Below, piece by piece: positions 21,530 to 28,690 of a DNA stretch of 64,000 nt (position 1 is the first letter of the stretch; each line of letters starts with the position of its first letter). Origin of the DNA: Escherichia phage vB_EcoM_DalCa. The position numbers were made by a program, and so were the translations under genes. The notes beneath the pieces were generated by a model. That model was not told where the DNA came from and did not search any database. It worked only from the letters and a program-made list of their open reading frames with translations. Where the stretch lies: the sequence record NC_054908.1, one strand, 5' to 3'.

Positions 21530-22494
21530 TGTATTCTTTAGAGGAATTTAATAATCAAGCAATAAACGCAGATTTTCAACGTAATAATATGTTTAGCTGC
21601 GTTTTTGCGACAACTCCATCAACTAAAAGCTCTTCGTTGATAAGTTCAATTAGCAACTTTTCTTATAATAACTTGGGTCTAAATTCAGACTGGTTAGGAT
21701 TGTCTCAAGGTGATATTAATCAGGGAATTACCACGCTAATTACTGCTGGCACACAAAAACTGATAAGAAAATCAGGGGTTAGTAAATATCTTATTGGTGC
21801 CATGAGTCAACGTACAGTTCAAAGTTTATTGGGTTCATTTACAGTTGGTACATATTTAATTGACTTCTTTAATATGGCGTATAATTCATCTGGATTGATG
21901 ATATACTCTGTAAAAATGCCAGAGAATAGATTATCCTATGAAACTGACTGGAACTATAATTCTCCTAATATTCGTATAACTGGGAGAGAATTAGACCCTT
22001 TGGTTATTTCATTTAGAATGGATTCAGAAGCTTGTAACTATCGTGCAATGCAAGACTGGGTTAACGCTGTTCAAGACCCAGTAACTGGATTACGTGCTTT
22101 GCCACAAGATGTCGAGGCAGATATTCAGGTTAATCTTCATGCTCGTAATGGATTACCTCATACTGCGGTGATGTTCACCGGATGCATTCCAGTGTCAGTG
22201 AGCGCTCCTGAGTTATCATATGATGGAGATAACCAAATAACTACATTTGATGTTACTTTTGCATATAGAGTCATGCAGGCTGGAGCAGTTGATAGGCAAG
22301 CTGCGCTTGAATGGCTTGAATCTGCTGCTATAAATGGTATTCAAAGCGTTCTCGGAAATAGTGGAGGTGTTACTGGACTATCTAATTCGCTTTCACGACT
22401 CAGTAGATTAGGGGGAACTGCAGGAAGCATTTCAAACATTAATACTATGACAGGAATTGTCAATTCGCAGAGTAAAATATTAGGAGCAATATAA
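21529..22494 (+). CDS. 54: Baseplate-tail tube initiator gp54
   Basis: 321 aa; ATGA overlap with gp48; strong terminator follows. Confidence 0.85.
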   Translation: MYSLEEFNNQAINADFQRNNMFSCVFATTPSTKSSSLISSISNFSYNNLGLNSDWLGLSQGDINQGITTLITAGTQKLIRKSGVSKYLIGAMSQRTVQSLLGSFTVGTYLIDFFNMAYNSSGLMIYSVKMPENRLSYETDWNYNSPNIRITGRELDPLVISFRMDSEACNYRAMQDWVNAVQDPVTGLRALPQDVEADIQVNLHARNGLPHTAVMFTGCIPVSVSAPELSYDGDNQITTFDVTFAYRVMQAGAVDRQAALEWLESAAINGIQSVLGNSGGVTGLSNSLSRLSRLGGTAGSISNINTMTGIVNSQSKILGAI

Positions 22495-22498
22495 CAAT

Positions 22499-22528
22499 GG
22501 GGACCTTTCGGTCCCCATATTTTTATTT
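22499..22528 (+). terminator. Rho-independent terminator after gene 54
   Basis: GGGGACC-tttc-GGTCCCC followed by ATATTTTTATTT. Confidence 0.7.
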
Positions 22529-22813
22529 ACGGAATGAAATAAAAGCAGAAACTGAAGCAACTAAACTATCTTCAATATAAACTTCAATTTTTACCGGAGC
22601 TTCTGACTCAAATTTACCTGTTACTACACCCTGAAAAATACTTTCAGTCTGTTCTGGCTTTGAAAAATTTTCAGAAGGAAAAATTCCAAACTTTTTATCG
22701 GTTCCAAAAATTTTAATAAATTCATCATAAACTGCTTCATTGAAAGCGTTATCAGCGGGAATAACGCCCTCAACTACAAGTTCTTGACCTAAAAAGCGCA
22801 AAGAAGATTTCAT
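22523..22813 (-). CDS. Hypothetical protein downstream of the Alt pair
   Basis: 96 aa ORF with its own GTTTACA-17-TATAGT promoter-like element and SD. Confidence 0.55.
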   Translation of the reverse strand: MKSSLRFLGQELVVEGVIPADNAFNEAVYDEFIKIFGTDKKFGIFPSENFSKPEQTESIFQGVVTGKFESEAPVKIEVYIEDSLVASVSAFISFRK

Positions 22814-22844
22814 TTTGTGTTCCTCATGTTATGTAAGTAAGACT

Positions 22845-22873
22845 ACTATAACACAACATGATGGACTTGTAAA
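22845..22873 (-). promoter_or_regulatory. Early sigma-70-type promoter (GTTTACA-17-TATAGT) upstream of the 96 aa ORF
   Basis: Near-identical about 45 bp element also upstream of alc. Confidence 0.5.
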
Positions 22874-24931
22874 CTACATTTTGAACTTTTTAGACATTCC
22901 GTTAATGTTAACCAAAGAAGCTAAGATTTGAGAAACTTCATTTTCCTCTTCTTTTGATTCTTCTACAAGGAATTGATTAAATCCAGCCATTGGACGAACT
23001 TCACCAGTTTCCATTAGATGGTCTCCATCATATACTGATTCTTCTAATTGTTCAGAAGGAGGAACGATTGTACCTTCGATTAGATACTTGTTATAAGCAG
23101 TTTCTTTCATAAAGTACGTACTTACTTTATTAATCTTCAGTAAAATTCCACGTGGTAGAATAACTTCAGCTTCTGATGGAAATCCTGATAAATGACCCGG
23201 AACGATAACTTTGATTCGCTCAGCTCCTTTAATTACCATACCCACGCTAGTTTCAGCATCTTCATTAGCATATGTAGAATGACTACCCATATGCATCAAA
23301 TCTTCTGCATCAACAGAACCTTCTCCTTCGCCAGAAAATACTGCACCGGAATCATCTAGAGCCATATAGTTTTTACCATGCTCACCGAAGATATTTGGTT
23401 TAAGTGATGTCGATACGAAGTTCTTGAAATAGAACATTTTATTTTCAATATTGTGACGCAAAGTTTTAAAGGTAACTTCTTGTCCACGGTAAAGTGTAGT
23501 TCCTGGAGGAAGAACTGAACCTTTAGCGAATGCAGAATCCAGCGTCTCAATATGTTTAATAGCTCGTTCCATATATTCTTCACGGGTAGAATCTGGTTTA
23601 CCCAAAAGGAACGAGTTCATTTCAACATATGAATCTGCACAATAATCTTCAATTACGTCAGATTCAGCCTGAGTTAATCCTTTTGGAGTTACTTCAGTAC
23701 TTGCATATTCATATGCCTGAGCGGCAGATTCATTAATCAATTTATAAATGCCATTCATGACAAATTGAATAATAGCTGTCTTTTCATCTGGCGTAGCTTT
23801 AGAACCTTTAACTAAATCATTGACAATTTTCTTAATAACATCAAAACTATTAGAAATATTAATATCAGCAAGATCGCTTAAAATTTTATCAGTTTTATAA
23901 TCAAAGAATTCTTTATTCTTTAAATATTCTTGAGAACCTTGATATGTTATATCGCTCTGCAGCTTGATAGATGGATCGCGTAAACGTGCATGGGCCAATG
24001 CAATATGATTTCGGAAGTTTTCTAGTTCATAATCGTTAGATTTAAAACGAGAAGCACTTCTCATACCACCGATAGCTCCTTTGCTAAAGTTTGAACCAAT
24101 CTGAATAACGCCAGAGTTCATCGGACCTTCTGCTTTATATACCGGAACTTTAGATTCAAACTCTTGATATTTCTTGGCAGCAAAGCTATCACCCTGAAGT
24201 GAAGCATCAACAGTAGAATATTGAGCTTGTGCTGCTAATCGACGACTTATTTTAGTTTTCTGAATAACAGCTTGGTCCGTGCGCTTATCATTTTCTAAAG
24301 CAATAGAAGCAGCAACAGCGACAGCTTTAGGAACAGCATTTCCTGTTTTAACGTCTACATAAACATCACCGACCTTTGATTCAACTTTTGTGAATAACTC
24401 AGTTGAAATAGGAGGTACACCTGGAATGTCTTCTAAATTGGCATTTTTACGGTAAACCATAATATATGCATATTTCTTATCATAGTCCCAGATTTCCTTT
24501 AAAAGAACATATCGACCTGCTCCTTTAGTACGTACTAAACGGTCAGCAATAACTTGCATTTGACGAGCTGCGCCATTTGTTTTACTTTTTAGTACGCGGA
24601 ATAGGCATGCGTCGATTTTATACTGTTTCATTGTTTGAAGAGCAGTATCAAAAACGGCATTAATGACACCAATTGGATTTCCACCCAAGTTTCTAAGTTT
24701 AACCAGTGATAGTTTCTCATTAACACCTATCATTACGATATGCATCATTTTATCGCCTGGCTTAACGTTTTTATTCGTATCACCACCAGAGGTGTATGTA
24801 CAAAATCTAAATCCAGGAAGCACGCTTTCTTCGCCGGCTTGAATAGCAAAAATTTGTGGTATTTTATGCTTAGGATTTAAGTTAACAACCGGCGCCGAAG
24901 CGCCGTCAAATAATTCTGTAATAAGTTCCAT
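22874..24931 (-). CDS. Alt-like mono-ADP-ribosyltransferase paralogue (685 aa)
   Basis: N-terminus MELITELFD... near-identical to the neighbouring Alt; R-S-E motifs (TLYRGQ, FVSTSL, EAEVILPRG). Confidence 0.8.
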   Translation of the reverse strand: MELITELFDGASAPVVNLNPKHKIPQIFAIQAGEESVLPGFRFCTYTSGGDTNKNVKPGDKMMHIVMIGVNEKLSLVKLRNLGGNPIGVINAVFDTALQTMKQYKIDACLFRVLKSKTNGAARQMQVIADRLVRTKGAGRYVLLKEIWDYDKKYAYIMVYRKNANLEDIPGVPPISTELFTKVESKVGDVYVDVKTGNAVPKAVAVAASIALENDKRTDQAVIQKTKISRRLAAQAQYSTVDASLQGDSFAAKKYQEFESKVPVYKAEGPMNSGVIQIGSNFSKGAIGGMRSASRFKSNDYELENFRNHIALAHARLRDPSIKLQSDITYQGSQEYLKNKEFFDYKTDKILSDLADINISNSFDVIKKIVNDLVKGSKATPDEKTAIIQFVMNGIYKLINESAAQAYEYASTEVTPKGLTQAESDVIEDYCADSYVEMNSFLLGKPDSTREEYMERAIKHIETLDSAFAKGSVLPPGTTLYRGQEVTFKTLRHNIENKMFYFKNFVSTSLKPNIFGEHGKNYMALDDSGAVFSGEGEGSVDAEDLMHMGSHSTYANEDAETSVGMVIKGAERIKVIVPGHLSGFPSEAEVILPRGILLKINKVSTYFMKETAYNKYLIEGTIVPPSEQLEESVYDGDHLMETGEVRPMAGFNQFLVEESKEEENEVSQILASLVNINGMSKKFKM

Positions 24932-24934
24932 GAT

Positions 24935-26992
24935 TTATCCTTGAACGAACTTGTAAGGCATGTTTGCAATATCTATACAAGACGCAATAATTCCAAGAGA
25001 TGATTCTACTTTCTGTTTAACATTTGATGAAACAAATGATGCAAAGTCAACTCTGTCTTCTACTTCAATATCACCTGTCATTGCAACCAATTCACCAGTT
25101 TCCATTAAATGGTCTCCGTCATAGATTACCGATTCGGTGAGCTCTTCCGTGGTCATAACTTCAGCTTGAATAAGCTTGTTGTTAGTTTTAACTGTTCCAT
25201 CATTGTAAGATGCATCAGTTATTTTATTAACTTTGACCATTAATCCACGTGGCAAAATAACTTCCATTTCATTTGAAGGCGCTAAACTTCCACCGGGTAA
25301 AACAACATTGACTTTATCAGCCCCAGTAATAACCCATCCAATTCCGACTAAATTATCGCTAGAATTAACAAGCCCTTCATCATTTTTATCGATAGAAATG
25401 TTTAGACGCTTTTCATCTGGTAAAACACCAACAGCTGAATCAGTCATCCAAGTACCAAAAATGTTTGGATATAATGATGTTGATACAAAATTTCTAAAAT
25501 AAAAAACTCGATTTTTTACCAATGCTTCATATATTGAAGGTAACATTCGCTGTGAACGATATAAAGTAATACCTTTTGGCAATCGATCACCATTTTTAAA
25601 GGCTGAATCTAAATTATCAATAGCTTTTTCTATGTCAGATGCTGTCAAAATACTTGTACGCTCATCTGGATTATATAATCCCAAAAGAGCATTATTTATG
25701 TCTACATATCCTGAACCTACGTATTCACGAATTCCGCGTTTTTGTGCTGGTGTGTATTTAGATGAATCTTTATTTTCGACTATAGGATGTAATGACCATC
25801 CAGCTGTAAGAGCATATCCACGTAATTCTCTTCGAATAATCTTTGTTTTTATTGCATTCCAAGAATTTTGTACTAACTCATTTGCAGCATCTTGGTTTAA
25901 ATGCGAATGTTTGTTAATATTTCTTTCAAACCAAGCACCTTTATATTTTTCTAAAGTATCATCGACGATAGAAGCAATAGTTTCTAAAGTTTTTATTGAA
26001 GTAATAGATTCTTTTCGTAATTTTTCTAAAGCTTTATTTTTTATTTCTGCATTAATAATGGATTCTTTATCTTCAGGAATTATAGAAGCTTCTCTGAATG
26101 CCATCCCAGCTGTAACACTGCTAAGAGCATTCTCTAGTGCAAATCCTGAAGTAGAAATTACCGTTAATTCATTAGAATCAGAAATTAAAGGCGCGTCCGC
26201 TGGTTTATTTAATTCTGCCGCTGAAGCCTCAAATTTTTGAAACATCGGTGTTTCAAATCTAGAAGATTCCAATGACTGACTTTGTGCAATTGCTCTACGG
26301 GAAATTTTAACTTTAACGATTACAGCTTGGTCAGAACGTTTATCATTTTCTTGTGCAATAGATGCTGCAATTGCCTCATTTTTGGTTACTTGAGCTCCGG
26401 TATCTTTATTGATATAAACATCACCGACCTTCGATTCAACTTTAGTAAAGAGCTCGGTACTAATTTCCGGAACTCCTGGAATGTCTTCTAGTGATACATT
26501 TTTGCGATGTATAAGAATATATGCATACTTTTTATCATAATCCCAGAGTTCCTTAAGAAGGACGTATCTGCCACCTGAACGACTACGGATAAGTCTATCA
26601 GCAATAACTTGAATTTGTCGAGCTTGACCAGCGGTTTTAGACTTAAGAATACGAAGCATACAAGCATCAATTTTATACTGACGCATTGTTTGCATTGCAA
26701 CAGTAAAAACTGAATTGATATAATTAATTGGGCTTGGACCAAGACCTTTTAATTTAGCAATTGAACCTTTAGCAGTTAATGTAAAAGGAACAATATGCAT
26801 CATTTTATCGCCCATTTTTAAATCGCGATTAGTATCACCTCCAGATGTATAGGTACATAAACGAAAGCCTGGTTGTTCAATTGCATCATCAACATGAACT
26901 GAAAAAATTTGCGGTATTTTCTTCTTTGGATTTAAGTTTGTAATCGGAAGAGTAGTATCTTCGTCAAATAATTCTGTAATAAGTTCCATCAT
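24935..26992 (-). CDS. alt: Alt ADP-ribosyltransferase (685 aa)
   Basis: N-terminal packaging-type sequence MMELITELFDEDTT...; R-S-E motifs (TLYRSQ, FVSTSL, EMEVILPRG); adjacent to gene 30. Confidence 0.8.
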   Translation of the reverse strand: MMELITELFDEDTTLPITNLNPKKKIPQIFSVHVDDAIEQPGFRLCTYTSGGDTNRDLKMGDKMMHIVPFTLTAKGSIAKLKGLGPSPINYINSVFTVAMQTMRQYKIDACMLRILKSKTAGQARQIQVIADRLIRSRSGGRYVLLKELWDYDKKYAYILIHRKNVSLEDIPGVPEISTELFTKVESKVGDVYINKDTGAQVTKNEAIAASIAQENDKRSDQAVIVKVKISRRAIAQSQSLESSRFETPMFQKFEASAAELNKPADAPLISDSNELTVISTSGFALENALSSVTAGMAFREASIIPEDKESIINAEIKNKALEKLRKESITSIKTLETIASIVDDTLEKYKGAWFERNINKHSHLNQDAANELVQNSWNAIKTKIIRRELRGYALTAGWSLHPIVENKDSSKYTPAQKRGIREYVGSGYVDINNALLGLYNPDERTSILTASDIEKAIDNLDSAFKNGDRLPKGITLYRSQRMLPSIYEALVKNRVFYFRNFVSTSLYPNIFGTWMTDSAVGVLPDEKRLNISIDKNDEGLVNSSDNLVGIGWVITGADKVNVVLPGGSLAPSNEMEVILPRGLMVKVNKITDASYNDGTVKTNNKLIQAEVMTTEELTESVIYDGDHLMETGELVAMTGDIEVEDRVDFASFVSSNVKQKVESSLGIIASCIDIANMPYKFVQG

Positions 26993-27027
26993 AGCCTCTC
27001 TAGTGTTTATTCTATTTATAAAATTAA

Positions 27028-27045
27028 AGGCCCGAAGGCCTTTAG
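27028..27045. terminator. Hairpin between alt and the 62 aa ORF (AAAGGCC-cgaa-GGCCTTT)
   Basis: Perfect 7 bp stem with tetraloop; function not established. Confidence 0.4.
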
Positions 27046-27230
27046 TAATCTAGTGGTAAGAGAGTACGATATATTTCAAACTTTGGTCCTTTTTCATAGG
27101 CATCAAATGTTTCTGTAAATTTATTATAAGCGTATGCATCTACAAATTCGAGAATGACTTGTGATACAGAAGTAGAAACATCTCCACCTTCTTTTTGAGC
27201 AATGACAATTGTTTCTAAGTAAGCTTTCAT
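27042..27230 (-). CDS. Hypothetical small protein between gene 30 and alt
   Basis: 62 aa ORF overlapping the gene 30 stop by 4 nt; hairpin after it. Confidence 0.5.
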   Translation of the reverse strand: MKAYLETIVIAQKEGGDVSTSVSQVILEFVDAYAYNKFTETFDAYEKGPKFEIYRTLLPLDY

Positions 27231-28690
27231 AAACCAGTTACCTCATGAAAATCACCAAATACATCCTCGAATGTATTAGCTTTAGTTTTATCTTCACGTA
27301 AACGAATCGCAATCGGAAGAAATAATTTAACGTAATCAGTGCGGCCATCAGATTTTAACCAACCGTTGCATTCGCACTCTAGAATTTTTCCAATATAATA
27401 ATTTTGGTTTTCCATAATGCGAGTACGGTCAAGTTCATGTGATTTTACGCCGGCTTTGTCTTTTAAGCCTGAACCAGCATTTACCTTAATTTTTCCACAC
27501 TCTGACTCAAGAATAAATCCACCTGCTTTAGTAGGGTCTTTACGGTGAGGATAAATTCCTACAATTTTTAAATCAACATCAATTACTTCTTTAAATTTAT
27601 AGAGATTTTTTGAACGAGCATTTTCCCATAACCCATCAACGTTTTTGAGAATAATACCTTCAAGACCTTGATCAATATACTTTTTATAAATTACCTTAGC
27701 TTCATCTAGGTTATTTACTACCTGGTTTTCAATTAAAATTACTTTATCATAACCTGATGTCATTTGTTCTAGTTTAGAAAAACGTACATCATATTTCAAA
27801 CGAAATGCAGGAAGACCGTATATTTCTACCAACGGGACATAATCCCAGACCTGAAACTTCATGCATTGAGCTTCTTTTTCAGAAATGGTTCCCTTTAAAG
27901 ATTTATTGGCGATGCCATTAGATGCAGTACGTGATTCAGCTACTTCGGCGAATTCTTTAGCTTTACTAATTTCAGGATAAGCATCAAAAAGAAAATCTAG
28001 GCCTTCTGGCTCCTTTTCAACTTGCTCATGGTATACCAATTCGCCATCAATTAACACACCTTCTGGATGAATCTGGCGAGCTTCTGCAGTCATTTTGATT
28101 AACTCTTCCTTAAGAAGATCTAATCCTAGATATTCATTACCAGCTCGTGATAAAAGACGAACATCATCTAATTCATCACCTCTAACTTCAGCAAAACACC
28201 GAGCTCCATCAGCTTTTAACTGGGCAAAGGCTGGAAATTTGATATTCTTATTAATGCCTTTTTCATCATAAGAACTTGCAAGCATTTGAGGTTGTTCAGG
28301 AATTAAACCTGGCCAAACTTTGTTCGCAATAGATACTGAAGCACCACATTCAAGGTCTCGCATCATCACCCGACGCAAAACTTCAACATCATCTTTTTTA
28401 CCGTCAGTAATATATCCAGTTAATTCCTCAATTGCCGCATTTCCAGTCAATTTCCGAGTAGCTAACGTGAATTCAATGAAGTCAAGCATATCGGTAAGAG
28501 TCAACATTCCAAAACTCTGGGTAGCAATACCCGGTTTAGGCCATTTCTTGATATAATACTGTAACCCACGAGAATAAGTCAGACGATATACTCGTTTAAG
28601 CAATTCATTATCTTTATTCTTTTCAAGAATTGCTTGCTTCTGCTTAGTTGAACCAATAGATGCTATTTCGTTCAGAATTTTAAGAATCAT
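27227..28690 (-). CDS. 30: ATP-dependent DNA ligase gp30
   Basis: 487 aa, same length as T4 DNA ligase; KADG adenylation motif (QLKADGARCF). Confidence 0.9.
   Translation of the reverse strand: MILKILNEIASIGSTKQKQAILEKNKDNELLKRVYRLTYSRGLQYYIKKWPKPGIATQSFGMLTLTDMLDFIEFTLATRKLTGNAAIEELTGYITDGKKDDVEVLRRVMMRDLECGASVSIANKVWPGLIPEQPQMLASSYDEKGINKNIKFPAFAQLKADGARCFAEVRGDELDDVRLLSRAGNEYLGLDLLKEELIKMTAEARQIHPEGVLIDGELVYHEQVEKEPEGLDFLFDAYPEISKAKEFAEVAESRTASNGIANKSLKGTISEKEAQCMKFQVWDYVPLVEIYGLPAFRLKYDVRFSKLEQMTSGYDKVILIENQVVNNLDEAKVIYKKYIDQGLEGIILKNVDGLWENARSKNLYKFKEVIDVDLKIVGIYPHRKDPTKAGGFILESECGKIKVNAGSGLKDKAGVKSHELDRTRIMENQNYYIGKILECECNGWLKSDGRTDYVKLFLPIAIRLREDKTKANTFEDVFGDFHEVTGL

Follow-up and report, generated by a model that had tools for sequence, protein, structure and literature searches.

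How many Alt enzymes does a T-even phage inject, and do they act on the same host proteins? Alt is the textbook case of a phage enzyme that enters the cell with the DNA to reprogram the host, and almost all knowledge of it comes from T4. The question is raised by a 64,000-nucleotide (nt) stretch of Escherichia phage vB_EcoM_DalCa (NC_054908.1), called the window below, in which two adjacent minus-strand genes, alt1 and alt2, each encode a full-length Alt-family ADP-ribosyltransferase (ART). Alt paralogues in T4-like phages, the T4 alt.-1/alt.-2 remnant included, were noted by Nolan et al., 2006 (PMC1524935), and the Alt/VIP2 clade and its head-packaging contexts were surveyed earlier (PMC5512222, PMC9503650). 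The role of alt2 has gone unstudied because all that is left of it in T4 is a broken stump; full-text literature searches, which miss most papers in subscription journals, returned no study of what alt2 does, what it targets or whether it is present in virions. As a genome-scan finding the tandem pair is ordinary: it is real, and it is already known as annotation in hundreds of GenBank/RefSeq genomes. The present analysis adds how the T4 stump arose, how strongly selection acts on alt2, that both protease sites are conserved, and the cassette-like, recombining character of the locus.

We consider it quite probable that the pair is a late bicistronic operon of a T4 Alt orthologue and a second, intact paralogue, that both products are R-S-E mono-ADP-ribosyltransferases which are packaged and injected, that alt2 has a substrate set of its own, and that the locus is modular. 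Each protein has the same five parts: an N-propeptide of six residues, a basic alpha/beta N-module of ~230 amino acids (aa), an all-helical centre, the ART domain and an acidic C-propeptide. Judging from the sequence layout, both genes would be transcribed late from a single TATAAATA promoter, with translation of alt2 coupled to that of alt1. Both proteins would be incorporated into the core of the prohead, and the protease gp21 would then trim the two ends of each at (I/L)xE, as shown for T4 Alt (PMC5694885) and as the motifs of alt2 predict. They would then be ejected with the DNA, and each, its catalytic residues being intact, would move ADP-ribose from nicotinamide adenine dinucleotide (NAD+) onto arginines of host proteins. 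The unrelated centre of alt2 and its different loop before the ExE motif would give it substrates unlike those of Alt, which include the RNA polymerase alpha subunit.

The gene pair and its relation to T4 Alt

Open reading frames were listed for 20-30 kb of the window. Two adjacent 685-aa frames on the minus strand, as an earlier reading of the letters (the sequence-only reading) had described, were recovered at exactly 24935-26992 and 22874-24931. Translation of alt1 most likely starts from the second ATG (26989); the protein then opens with MELITELFDE, like T4 Alt. Membership of both in the Alt family, also proposed at that stage, was borne out: the proteins are 41% identical (BLASTP, E = 1e-162), both exceed the gathering cutoff of PF03496 ADPrib_exo_Tox (23.4 bits; 123 bits for alt1 and 72 bits for alt2), and both match PHROG 802 ('Alt-like') over their whole length (E = 1e-256 and 1e-262).

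In a per-domain comparison alt1 was identical to T4 Alt at 100% of positions in the N-module, 99% in the centre, 96% in the ART domain and 99% in the tail, with a ratio of non-synonymous to synonymous substitution rates (dN/dS) of 0.058. Window alt1 and T4 alt lie at the same place between alt.1/DNA ligase and gene 54 and share the late promoter layout and the gp21 sites. By these comparisons alt1 is the orthologue of T4 Alt. T4 Alt ADP-ribosylates RNA polymerase alpha at Arg265, and at 96-100% identity modification of this subunit by alt1 is plausible. A catalytically dead T4 Alt mutant is reported as E577A (PMC11404850). The NC_000866 translation places the two glutamates of ExE at 574 and 576 and a valine at 577, so that the two numberings are off by one; E576 is assumed to be the residue that was mutated. 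The gp21 site LTE-619 of PMC5694885 agrees exactly with the NC_000866 numbering.

The window belongs to a Tequatrovirus (T2/T4-like coliphage). By megablast, 22400-27300 is 99.7% identical to Escherichia phage vB_EcoM_C2-3, and 137 more records cover at least 80% of this interval; these records label the genes 'alt_1/alt_2' or 'Alt-like RNA polymerase ADP-ribosyltransferase (x2)'. Single-gene arrangements do occur in other phages, and on that ground the pair might be taken for an assembly or annotation artefact of one alt gene. This explanation is refuted. The window copies share no 31-mer, the longest identical stretch is one of 28 nt at the 5' end, and their DNA identity is ~60-78% even in the N-module. 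The same arrangement is present in at least 138 independently sequenced genomes at 97-99.7% identity, and alt2 in ~400.

Catalytic domain

The motifs listed in the sequence-only reading (TLYRGQ/TLYRSQ, FVSTSL and EAEVILPRG/EMEVILPRG) are present in the two proteins. Neither copy has lost its R-S-E residues, the defect for which that reading had said to look: when 15 Alt-type proteins, drawn from both types, are aligned, R482, S507, S509, E587 and E589 (alt2 numbering) never vary, and dN/dS of alt2 is ~0.02. A profile made from this alignment matches solved C3-type and binary-toxin ARTs in the PDB. In the profile comparison 'LyR' of Alt aligns with 'vYR' of the C3-type chain 4xsg_B, and 'EaEviLPRG' with its 'QyELLLPRN'. 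A phmmer search of PDB sequences with alt2 gave no direct match; the toxins were reached by profile and predicted fold only.

The fold of alt2 was predicted using AlphaFold2. The mean predicted local distance difference test score (pLDDT) was 72.4, mostly 70-90 in the ART core, and confident blocks were alpha/beta (aa 12-237), all-helical (aa 250-470) and beta-rich (aa 480-622). With this predicted model Foldseek returned Vis, Certhrax, CDTa, C3, VIP2 and iota toxin at E = 4e-7 to 1e-4; for Vis, C3, VIP2, CDTa and iota the match probability was 1.00, with target-normalised template modelling (TM) scores of up to 0.63. By profile and motif, and for alt2 by predicted fold as well, alt1 and alt2 belong to the R-S-E clade of ADP-ribosyltransferases (C3/VIP2-like). 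E-x-E instead of Q-x-E fits arginine specificity in the C3/iota family.

The catalytic fold and motifs are common to Alt and the toxins C3, VIP2, iota, CDTa, Vis and Certhrax, and the ExE form is that of the arginine-specific iota and Vis. Sequence identity between these toxins and the Alt type is, however, only 14-20%, and the N-module and helical centre of Alt have no counterpart in C3/VIP2/iota-type toxins. Delivery also differs: Alt travels packaged in the phage head, whereas the toxins rely on secretion or a binary B component.

Selection on alt2 and its remnant in T4

Where the window has alt2, T4 has alt.-1 (61 aa) and alt.-2 (67 aa), which according to the T4 RefSeq note 'reflect an old duplication of the first part of gene alt'. 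The T4 DNA was aligned with the window. Over the first 376 nt of the alignment, which span the alt2 start, the two are 96% identical, and the flanks are the same; a 1-nt deletion in T4, near window position 24772, causes the frameshift that separates alt.-1 from alt.-2. Past the aligned segment the T4 sequence jumps to the last alt2 codons, with 1,699 bp deleted between 9-nt direct repeats (CTAAAAAGT). Because of the aligned start, the frameshift and the jump at direct repeats, alt.-1/alt.-2 is, on this alignment, a deletion derivative of full-length alt2 and not a partial duplication, and window alt2 is its intact ancestral form.

A query spanning the T4 junction was matched end to end in 91 of 498 records, independent environmental isolates among them. 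About 400 records matched it as two separate halves only, the pattern of an intact alt2, in agreement with the 400 phage records that carry the alt2 cassette at ≥90% nt identity and with ~400 tblastn matches at ≥80% identity. The T2 'hypothetical protein' EcT2_00208 is 99% identical to alt2.

Could alt2 then be a duplicate in decay or without catalytic activity, bound for the T4 state and with no role in infection? T4 and 90 other records hold the stump only, the Pfam score of alt2 is below that of alt1, and truncated alt2-type proteins recur (clusters P0007, 624 aa; P0008, 528 aa; P0010, 415 aa, on 14 contigs). The latter are 98-99% identical to alt2 over 61-91% of its length and could be further decay alleles or alternative gene calls. 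Against decay, alt2 and T2 alt2 differ by 58 synonymous and 5 non-synonymous changes (dN/dS = 0.022), and the ART domains of alt2 and its ECML-134 counterpart by 21 and 0, respectively. Every catalytic residue of alt2 is invariant and the frame is full length in 400 records. The natural fusions described below keep the alt2 body and lose that of alt1, and a positional orthologue of alt2 is conserved in Dhakavirus. A dead duplicate is thus very improbable. alt2 is under strong purifying selection, and its intact catalytic residues together with this selection indicate that it is functional.

Probable operon layout and head packaging

Reading along the minus strand past the end of alt.1, one meets in turn a terminator-like hairpin, the late promoter motif TATAAATA, a Shine-Dalgarno sequence and alt1 (Table 1). 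The minus strand of 16.2-32.7 kb holds no second TATAAATA motif, and hence no late promoter for alt2 alone; as the sole such motif in this interval, the copy upstream of alt1 must serve both genes. The stop codon of alt1 (TAA, 24935-24937) is separated by 3 nt from the ATG of alt2 (24929-24931), whose Shine-Dalgarno sequence lies in the last alt1 codons. From this layout alt1 and alt2 look like one late, translationally coupled operon. Sigma-70-like promoters inside the alt genes were at chance level (19 matches, 18.3 expected) and were rejected.

Mass spectrometry has established that the prohead protease gp21 cuts T4 Alt at ITE-6 and LTE-619, which leaves a mature protein of 68.2 kDa (PMC5694885; summarised in PMC9026906). 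Motifs of the gp21 type are kept in all 15 aligned sequences, the form being (I/L)-x-E for residue 6 and (L/I/M)-x-E-S/A for the C-terminal site. The putative sites of alt2 are ITE-6 and LEE-631. The computed mass of mature alt1 is 68.2 kDa, equal to the published T4 value, and that predicted for mature alt2 is 69.2 kDa. The N-module is basic (isoelectric point ~9.6) and the C-propeptide acidic (4.2-4.6), as are the centre and the ART domain.

The extreme C-termini had been described in the sequence-only reading as clearly divergent. Divergence there is not simple: just past the cleavage site Y-D-G-D and then an E.GE block are invariant in both paralogues and several genera, and K-F is conserved near the end. 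The C-propeptide is itself under constraint, given this block and K-F, and may be a targeting, tethering or auto-inhibitory element. The N-termini had been called almost identical; identity is in fact 68% over aa 1-238, and complete only over the first nine residues.

Because of the single late promoter, the translational coupling, the conservation of both gp21 motifs and the shared N-module, packaging and injection of both proteins, which the sequence-only reading had suggested, is likely and is the most economical reading. A mature T4 head holds ~40 copies of Alt. The literature searches described above found no virion proteome of a two-copy Tequatrovirus; for a single-copy relative infecting Klebsiella, the Alt homologue is reported to be abundant in virions (PMC13119998).

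A different account of alt2 is that it is active and either unpackaged, acting late in the producing cell as ModA and ModB do, or packaged yet redundant with Alt. We regard this account as unlikely. As to the first form, alt2 retains the whole Alt architecture, both gp21 propeptide sites, the N-module and the conserved C-propeptide, which argues against a purely intracellular role since such features would be needless there. ModA and ModB were not seen among the 73 clusters found with the N-module profile (below), a search that involved no direct comparison with either protein. The second form is taken up with the substrates.

The N-module

Proteins of the alt2 type carry the precomputed Pfam assignment PF26846 (Tevenvirinae_ADPRT), and the N-module of alt2, at the 68% identity to that of alt1 given above, is of the Alt-specific kind. 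Modelled alone, the N-module reached a pLDDT of 84 and a predicted TM score of 0.82. A sequence-profile comparison gave no support for a relation to the GNAT acyltransferase fold. Among 1.84 billion representatives the N-module profile matched 73 clusters, nearly all of them Alt-sized; ten of odd length or low score were scanned, and most carry PF03496. No clean case of an N-module fused to non-ART cargo emerged from this search and scan.

Four metagenomic N-module proteins (P0180, P0182, P0183 and P0187) have no Pfam ART match, and for their long regions after the N-module neither PF03496 nor the remainder of the Alt PHROG profile gives a match. P0180 and P0182 (1,142 aa) have degenerate ART-like motifs in which the catalytic arginine is replaced (LYK for LYR). 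A Foldseek search of BFVD returned N-module-like folds at the N-termini of large uncharacterised phage proteins (E = 1e-7 to 1e-4, TM ~0.5, 10-17% identity), some of them annotated with Zeta-toxin, deaminase or ParB domains. These model-based matches are suggestive of a shared head-delivery domain.

Possible substrate divergence

T4 Alt and alt2 share the five-part architecture, the catalytic R/STS/ExE residues and both cleavage motifs. The differences, measured on alt1, lie elsewhere. Overall identity is 41%, and the central 180 aa (aa 239-415) are unalignable, with 17-19% identity; divergence of the central regions had been anticipated in the sequence-only reading. The segment from STS to ExE is poorly conserved and 9 aa longer in alt2 (77 aa; 68 aa in alt1), and the model of alt2 has low confidence within it, at aa 516-540. 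The phosphate-nicotinamide and ADP-ribosylating toxin turn-turn (ARTT) loops of C3-like enzymes lie in this segment. The residues before and at ExE are HLSGFPS-EAE in alt2 and GSLAPSN-EME in alt1; the alt2 loop has a phenylalanine, whereas that of Alt has no aromatic residue. Because the centre is unalignable and both the STS-to-ExE segment and the loop before ExE differ, it is plausible, as the sequence-only reading had put forward, that alt2 substrates differ from those of alt1.

Redundancy, the second form of the account above, would draw on ART cores that are 39-41% identical and on the breadth of T4 Alt, whose many in vitro targets make overlap possible. The features that suggest different substrates speak against it (17% identity in the centre, 77 and 68 aa from STS to ExE, HLSGFPSEAE and GSLAPSNEME), as does the retention of two tandem copies since before the split of Tequatrovirus and Dhakavirus.

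Several points weigh against two injected enzymes with separate targets. The PF03496 score of alt2 is lower (72 against 123 bits). Full-length alt2 is missing from about 91 phages of natural and laboratory origin, among them T4, which thrive nonetheless, and it is therefore dispensable on at least some hosts. No paper within the scope of our literature searches shows alt2 in virions, cleaved, injected or enzymatically active. Finally, T4 Alt is promiscuous in vitro, with many targets in the work of Depping et al., 2005, as far as it is cited in PMC9503650 and PMC5512222, so that the substrates of alt1 and alt2 may overlap. A second injected enzyme with its own substrates nevertheless remains the reading we prefer.

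Modular evolution of the alt locus

The order ligase, alt.1, alt1, alt2, alt.-3, gp54 is the same in Dhakavirus dhabil, so that the alt duplication predates the separation of the two genera. Identities were computed by domain. Over the N-module (aa 1-238) the paralogues within a genome are 68% (window) and 65% (dhabil) identical, cross-genus orthologues 46% and non-orthologous pairs 42%. In the centre, alt1 and alt2 of one genome are 14-17% identical, compared with 46% for alt2 and 34% for alt1 across the genera; the corresponding values are 39-41%, 59% and 65% for the ART domain and 36-44%, 58% and 58% for the tail. For gp48, gp54, alt.-3 and alt.1 the window phage and dhabil are 56-63% identical. 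The N-module thus clusters by genome, and the centre, ART and tail by paralogue type. In Dhakavirus (dhabil_259, JS10 Alt) the protein at the alt2 position is a positional orthologue by centre, ART and tail (46%, 59% and 58%), yet its N-module is nearer to alt1 of its own genome than to window alt2. Either N-modules were homogenised within each lineage or cassettes were exchanged between lineages; both require recombination at the N-module boundary. In phage 44RR a second Alt-like gene, ORF187c, was noted by Nolan et al., 2006 (PMC1524935).

Mosaicism is also seen within the T-even phages. T2 alt1 (697 aa) is 97-100% identical to window alt1 at the nt level over aa 1-238 and from ~aa 627 to the end, but only 39-71% between aa 238 and ~627, where it is nearer to Dhakavirus alt1. 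Compared with T4 Alt as protein, it is 31% identical in the centre, 66% in the ART domain and 95-100% in the N-module and tail. Three independent single-gene fusions join an alt1 N-terminus to an alt2 body, with the T4-type Alt body lost and the alt2 body kept. Their crossovers lie at ~aa 148-159 in ECML-134 (finished RefSeq, NC_025449), ~aa 175-193 in a 65-kb contig (L004) and ~aa 222-228 in the protein P0006; in ECML-134 and the contig the fusion is placed between alt.1 and alt.-3. Assembly artefacts were considered for the fusions and ruled out: two copies without a shared 31-mer cannot be collapsed by k-mer assembly, the ECML-134 record is finished, and the three crossover points differ.

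The T4/window-type alt1 cassette was counted in 173 records, the T2-type alt1 cassette in 319, the alt2 cassette in 400 and the T4-type stump in 91. T4, with the minority alt1 allele and no alt2, is therefore atypical at the alt locus. Because the T2-type cassette is in the majority, results on T4 Alt substrates may not transfer to the first alt gene of most T-even phages.

By sequence, the N-module and C-propeptide behave as constant flanks, and the centre and ART domain as an exchangeable cassette. The T4 internal proteins IPI-III and the polymorphic-toxin/polyvalent-protein systems (PMC3012670, PMC5512222) follow the same logic, with a constant delivery or processing segment, a variable effector body and alleles that differ by phage. 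At alt, in contrast to the IPI-III type with its capsid-targeting peptide of ~10 aa, the constant part is a folded domain of ~230 aa plus the C-propeptide; unlike in the IPI-III and polymorphic-toxin systems, the variable part has so far always been an ART or a divergent ART-like region. We propose tentatively, as a possibility somewhat short of even, that alt, rather than being one gene for a modifier of RNA polymerase, is a polymorphic locus of injected effectors in which the N-module and C-propeptide would serve as anchors of delivery, processing and recombination while cassettes are swapped, fused or deleted. The targets of alt2 and of T2-type alt1 would then be unlike those of T4 Alt, and might include defence or toxin-antitoxin proteins.

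Neighbouring genes and feature coordinates

The neighbourhood is that of a T4-like alt locus: the plus strand carries gp29 (590 aa), gp48 and gp54, and the minus strand carries alt.-3, the two alt frames, alt.1 (Pfam 'Phage_blade') and a DNA ligase of 487 aa. The pair lies between DNA ligase/alt.1 and alt.-3/gene 54 under a late promoter, which is the position of the Alt family. The early-type promoter directly after the alt2 stop serves, by its placement, alt.-3 and not the alt genes; with this promoter of its own, alt.-3 would be regulated separately from the late alt operon despite its name. A 202-aa antisense frame inside alt1, recorded for its length only, is probably spurious.

Table 1. 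Coordinates of features at the alt locus of the window and of alt genes in related records
Feature	Position	Strand	Remark
alt1	24935..26989	-	T4 Alt orthologue; 684 aa from second ATG (mechanical frame start 26992, 685 aa)
alt1 N-module, aa 7-238	26276-26971	-	
alt1 centre and ART cassette, aa 239-619	25133-26275	-	
alt1 catalytic R478	25556-25558	-	
alt1 catalytic S503-T-S505	25475-25483	-	
alt1 catalytic E574-M-E576	25262-25270	-	
alt1 gp21 site, E6	26972-26974	-	
alt1 gp21 site, E619	25133-25135	-	
alt1 C-propeptide, aa 620-684	24938-25132	-	
alt2	22874..24931	-	685 aa; second Alt paralogue, intact form of T4 alt.-1/alt.-2
alt2 N-propeptide, aa 1-6		-	
alt2 N-module, aa 7-238	24218-24913	-	
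alt2 helical centre, aa 239-415	23687-24217	-	
alt2 ART, aa 416-631	23039-23686	-	
alt2 catalytic R482	23486-23488	-	
alt2 catalytic S507-T-S509	23405-23413	-	
alt2 catalytic E587-A-E589	23165-23173	-	
alt2 gp21 site LEE-631, E631	23039-23041	-	predicted
alt2 C-propeptide, aa 632-685	22877-23038	-	
Hairpin TAAAGGCCTTCGGGCCTTTA and T run	27025..27044	-	intrinsic-terminator-like; end of alt.1, just upstream of late promoter
Late promoter motif TATAAATA	27013..27020	-	T4 type; ~20 nt upstream of alt1 start
Shine-Dalgarno AAGGA of alt2	24938..24942	-	within last alt1 codons
Direct repeat CTAAAAAGT, 5' copy	24584..24592	-	9 nt; left breakpoint of 1,699-bp T4 deletion
Direct repeat CTAAAAAGT, 3' copy	22885..22893	-	9 nt; right breakpoint, last alt2 codons
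Sigma-70 promoter, early type	22845..22873	-	TTTACA-17 nt-TATAGT, TG extension; directly after alt2 stop
alt.-3	22523..22813	-	96 aa, Pfam DUF5498; conserved downstream neighbour, flank in every arrangement seen
Bidirectional terminator hairpin	22497-22518		alt.-3 end; common to convergent gene 54
Antisense frame inside alt1	25632-26240	+	202 aa; probably spurious
T4 alt (NC_000866)	L001 6458-8503		
T2 alt1	L002 1904-3997		697 aa
ECML-134 fusion (NC_025449)	L005 3202-5262		
Fusion in 65-kb contig	L004 5001-7055		
P0182	L006 552-3980		1,142 aa; metagenomic

Implications

A second Alt-type enzyme is encoded in about four fifths of the sequenced relatives, and about two thirds have a different cassette in the first gene. 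If the paralogues do have different targets, host takeover by T-even phages, possibly including action against host defences, would be broader than the T4 model, and phages used in therapy or biocontrol would differ in an uncharacterised host-modifying activity. If the locus is one of polymorphic effectors, T4 would under-represent what T-even phages inject.

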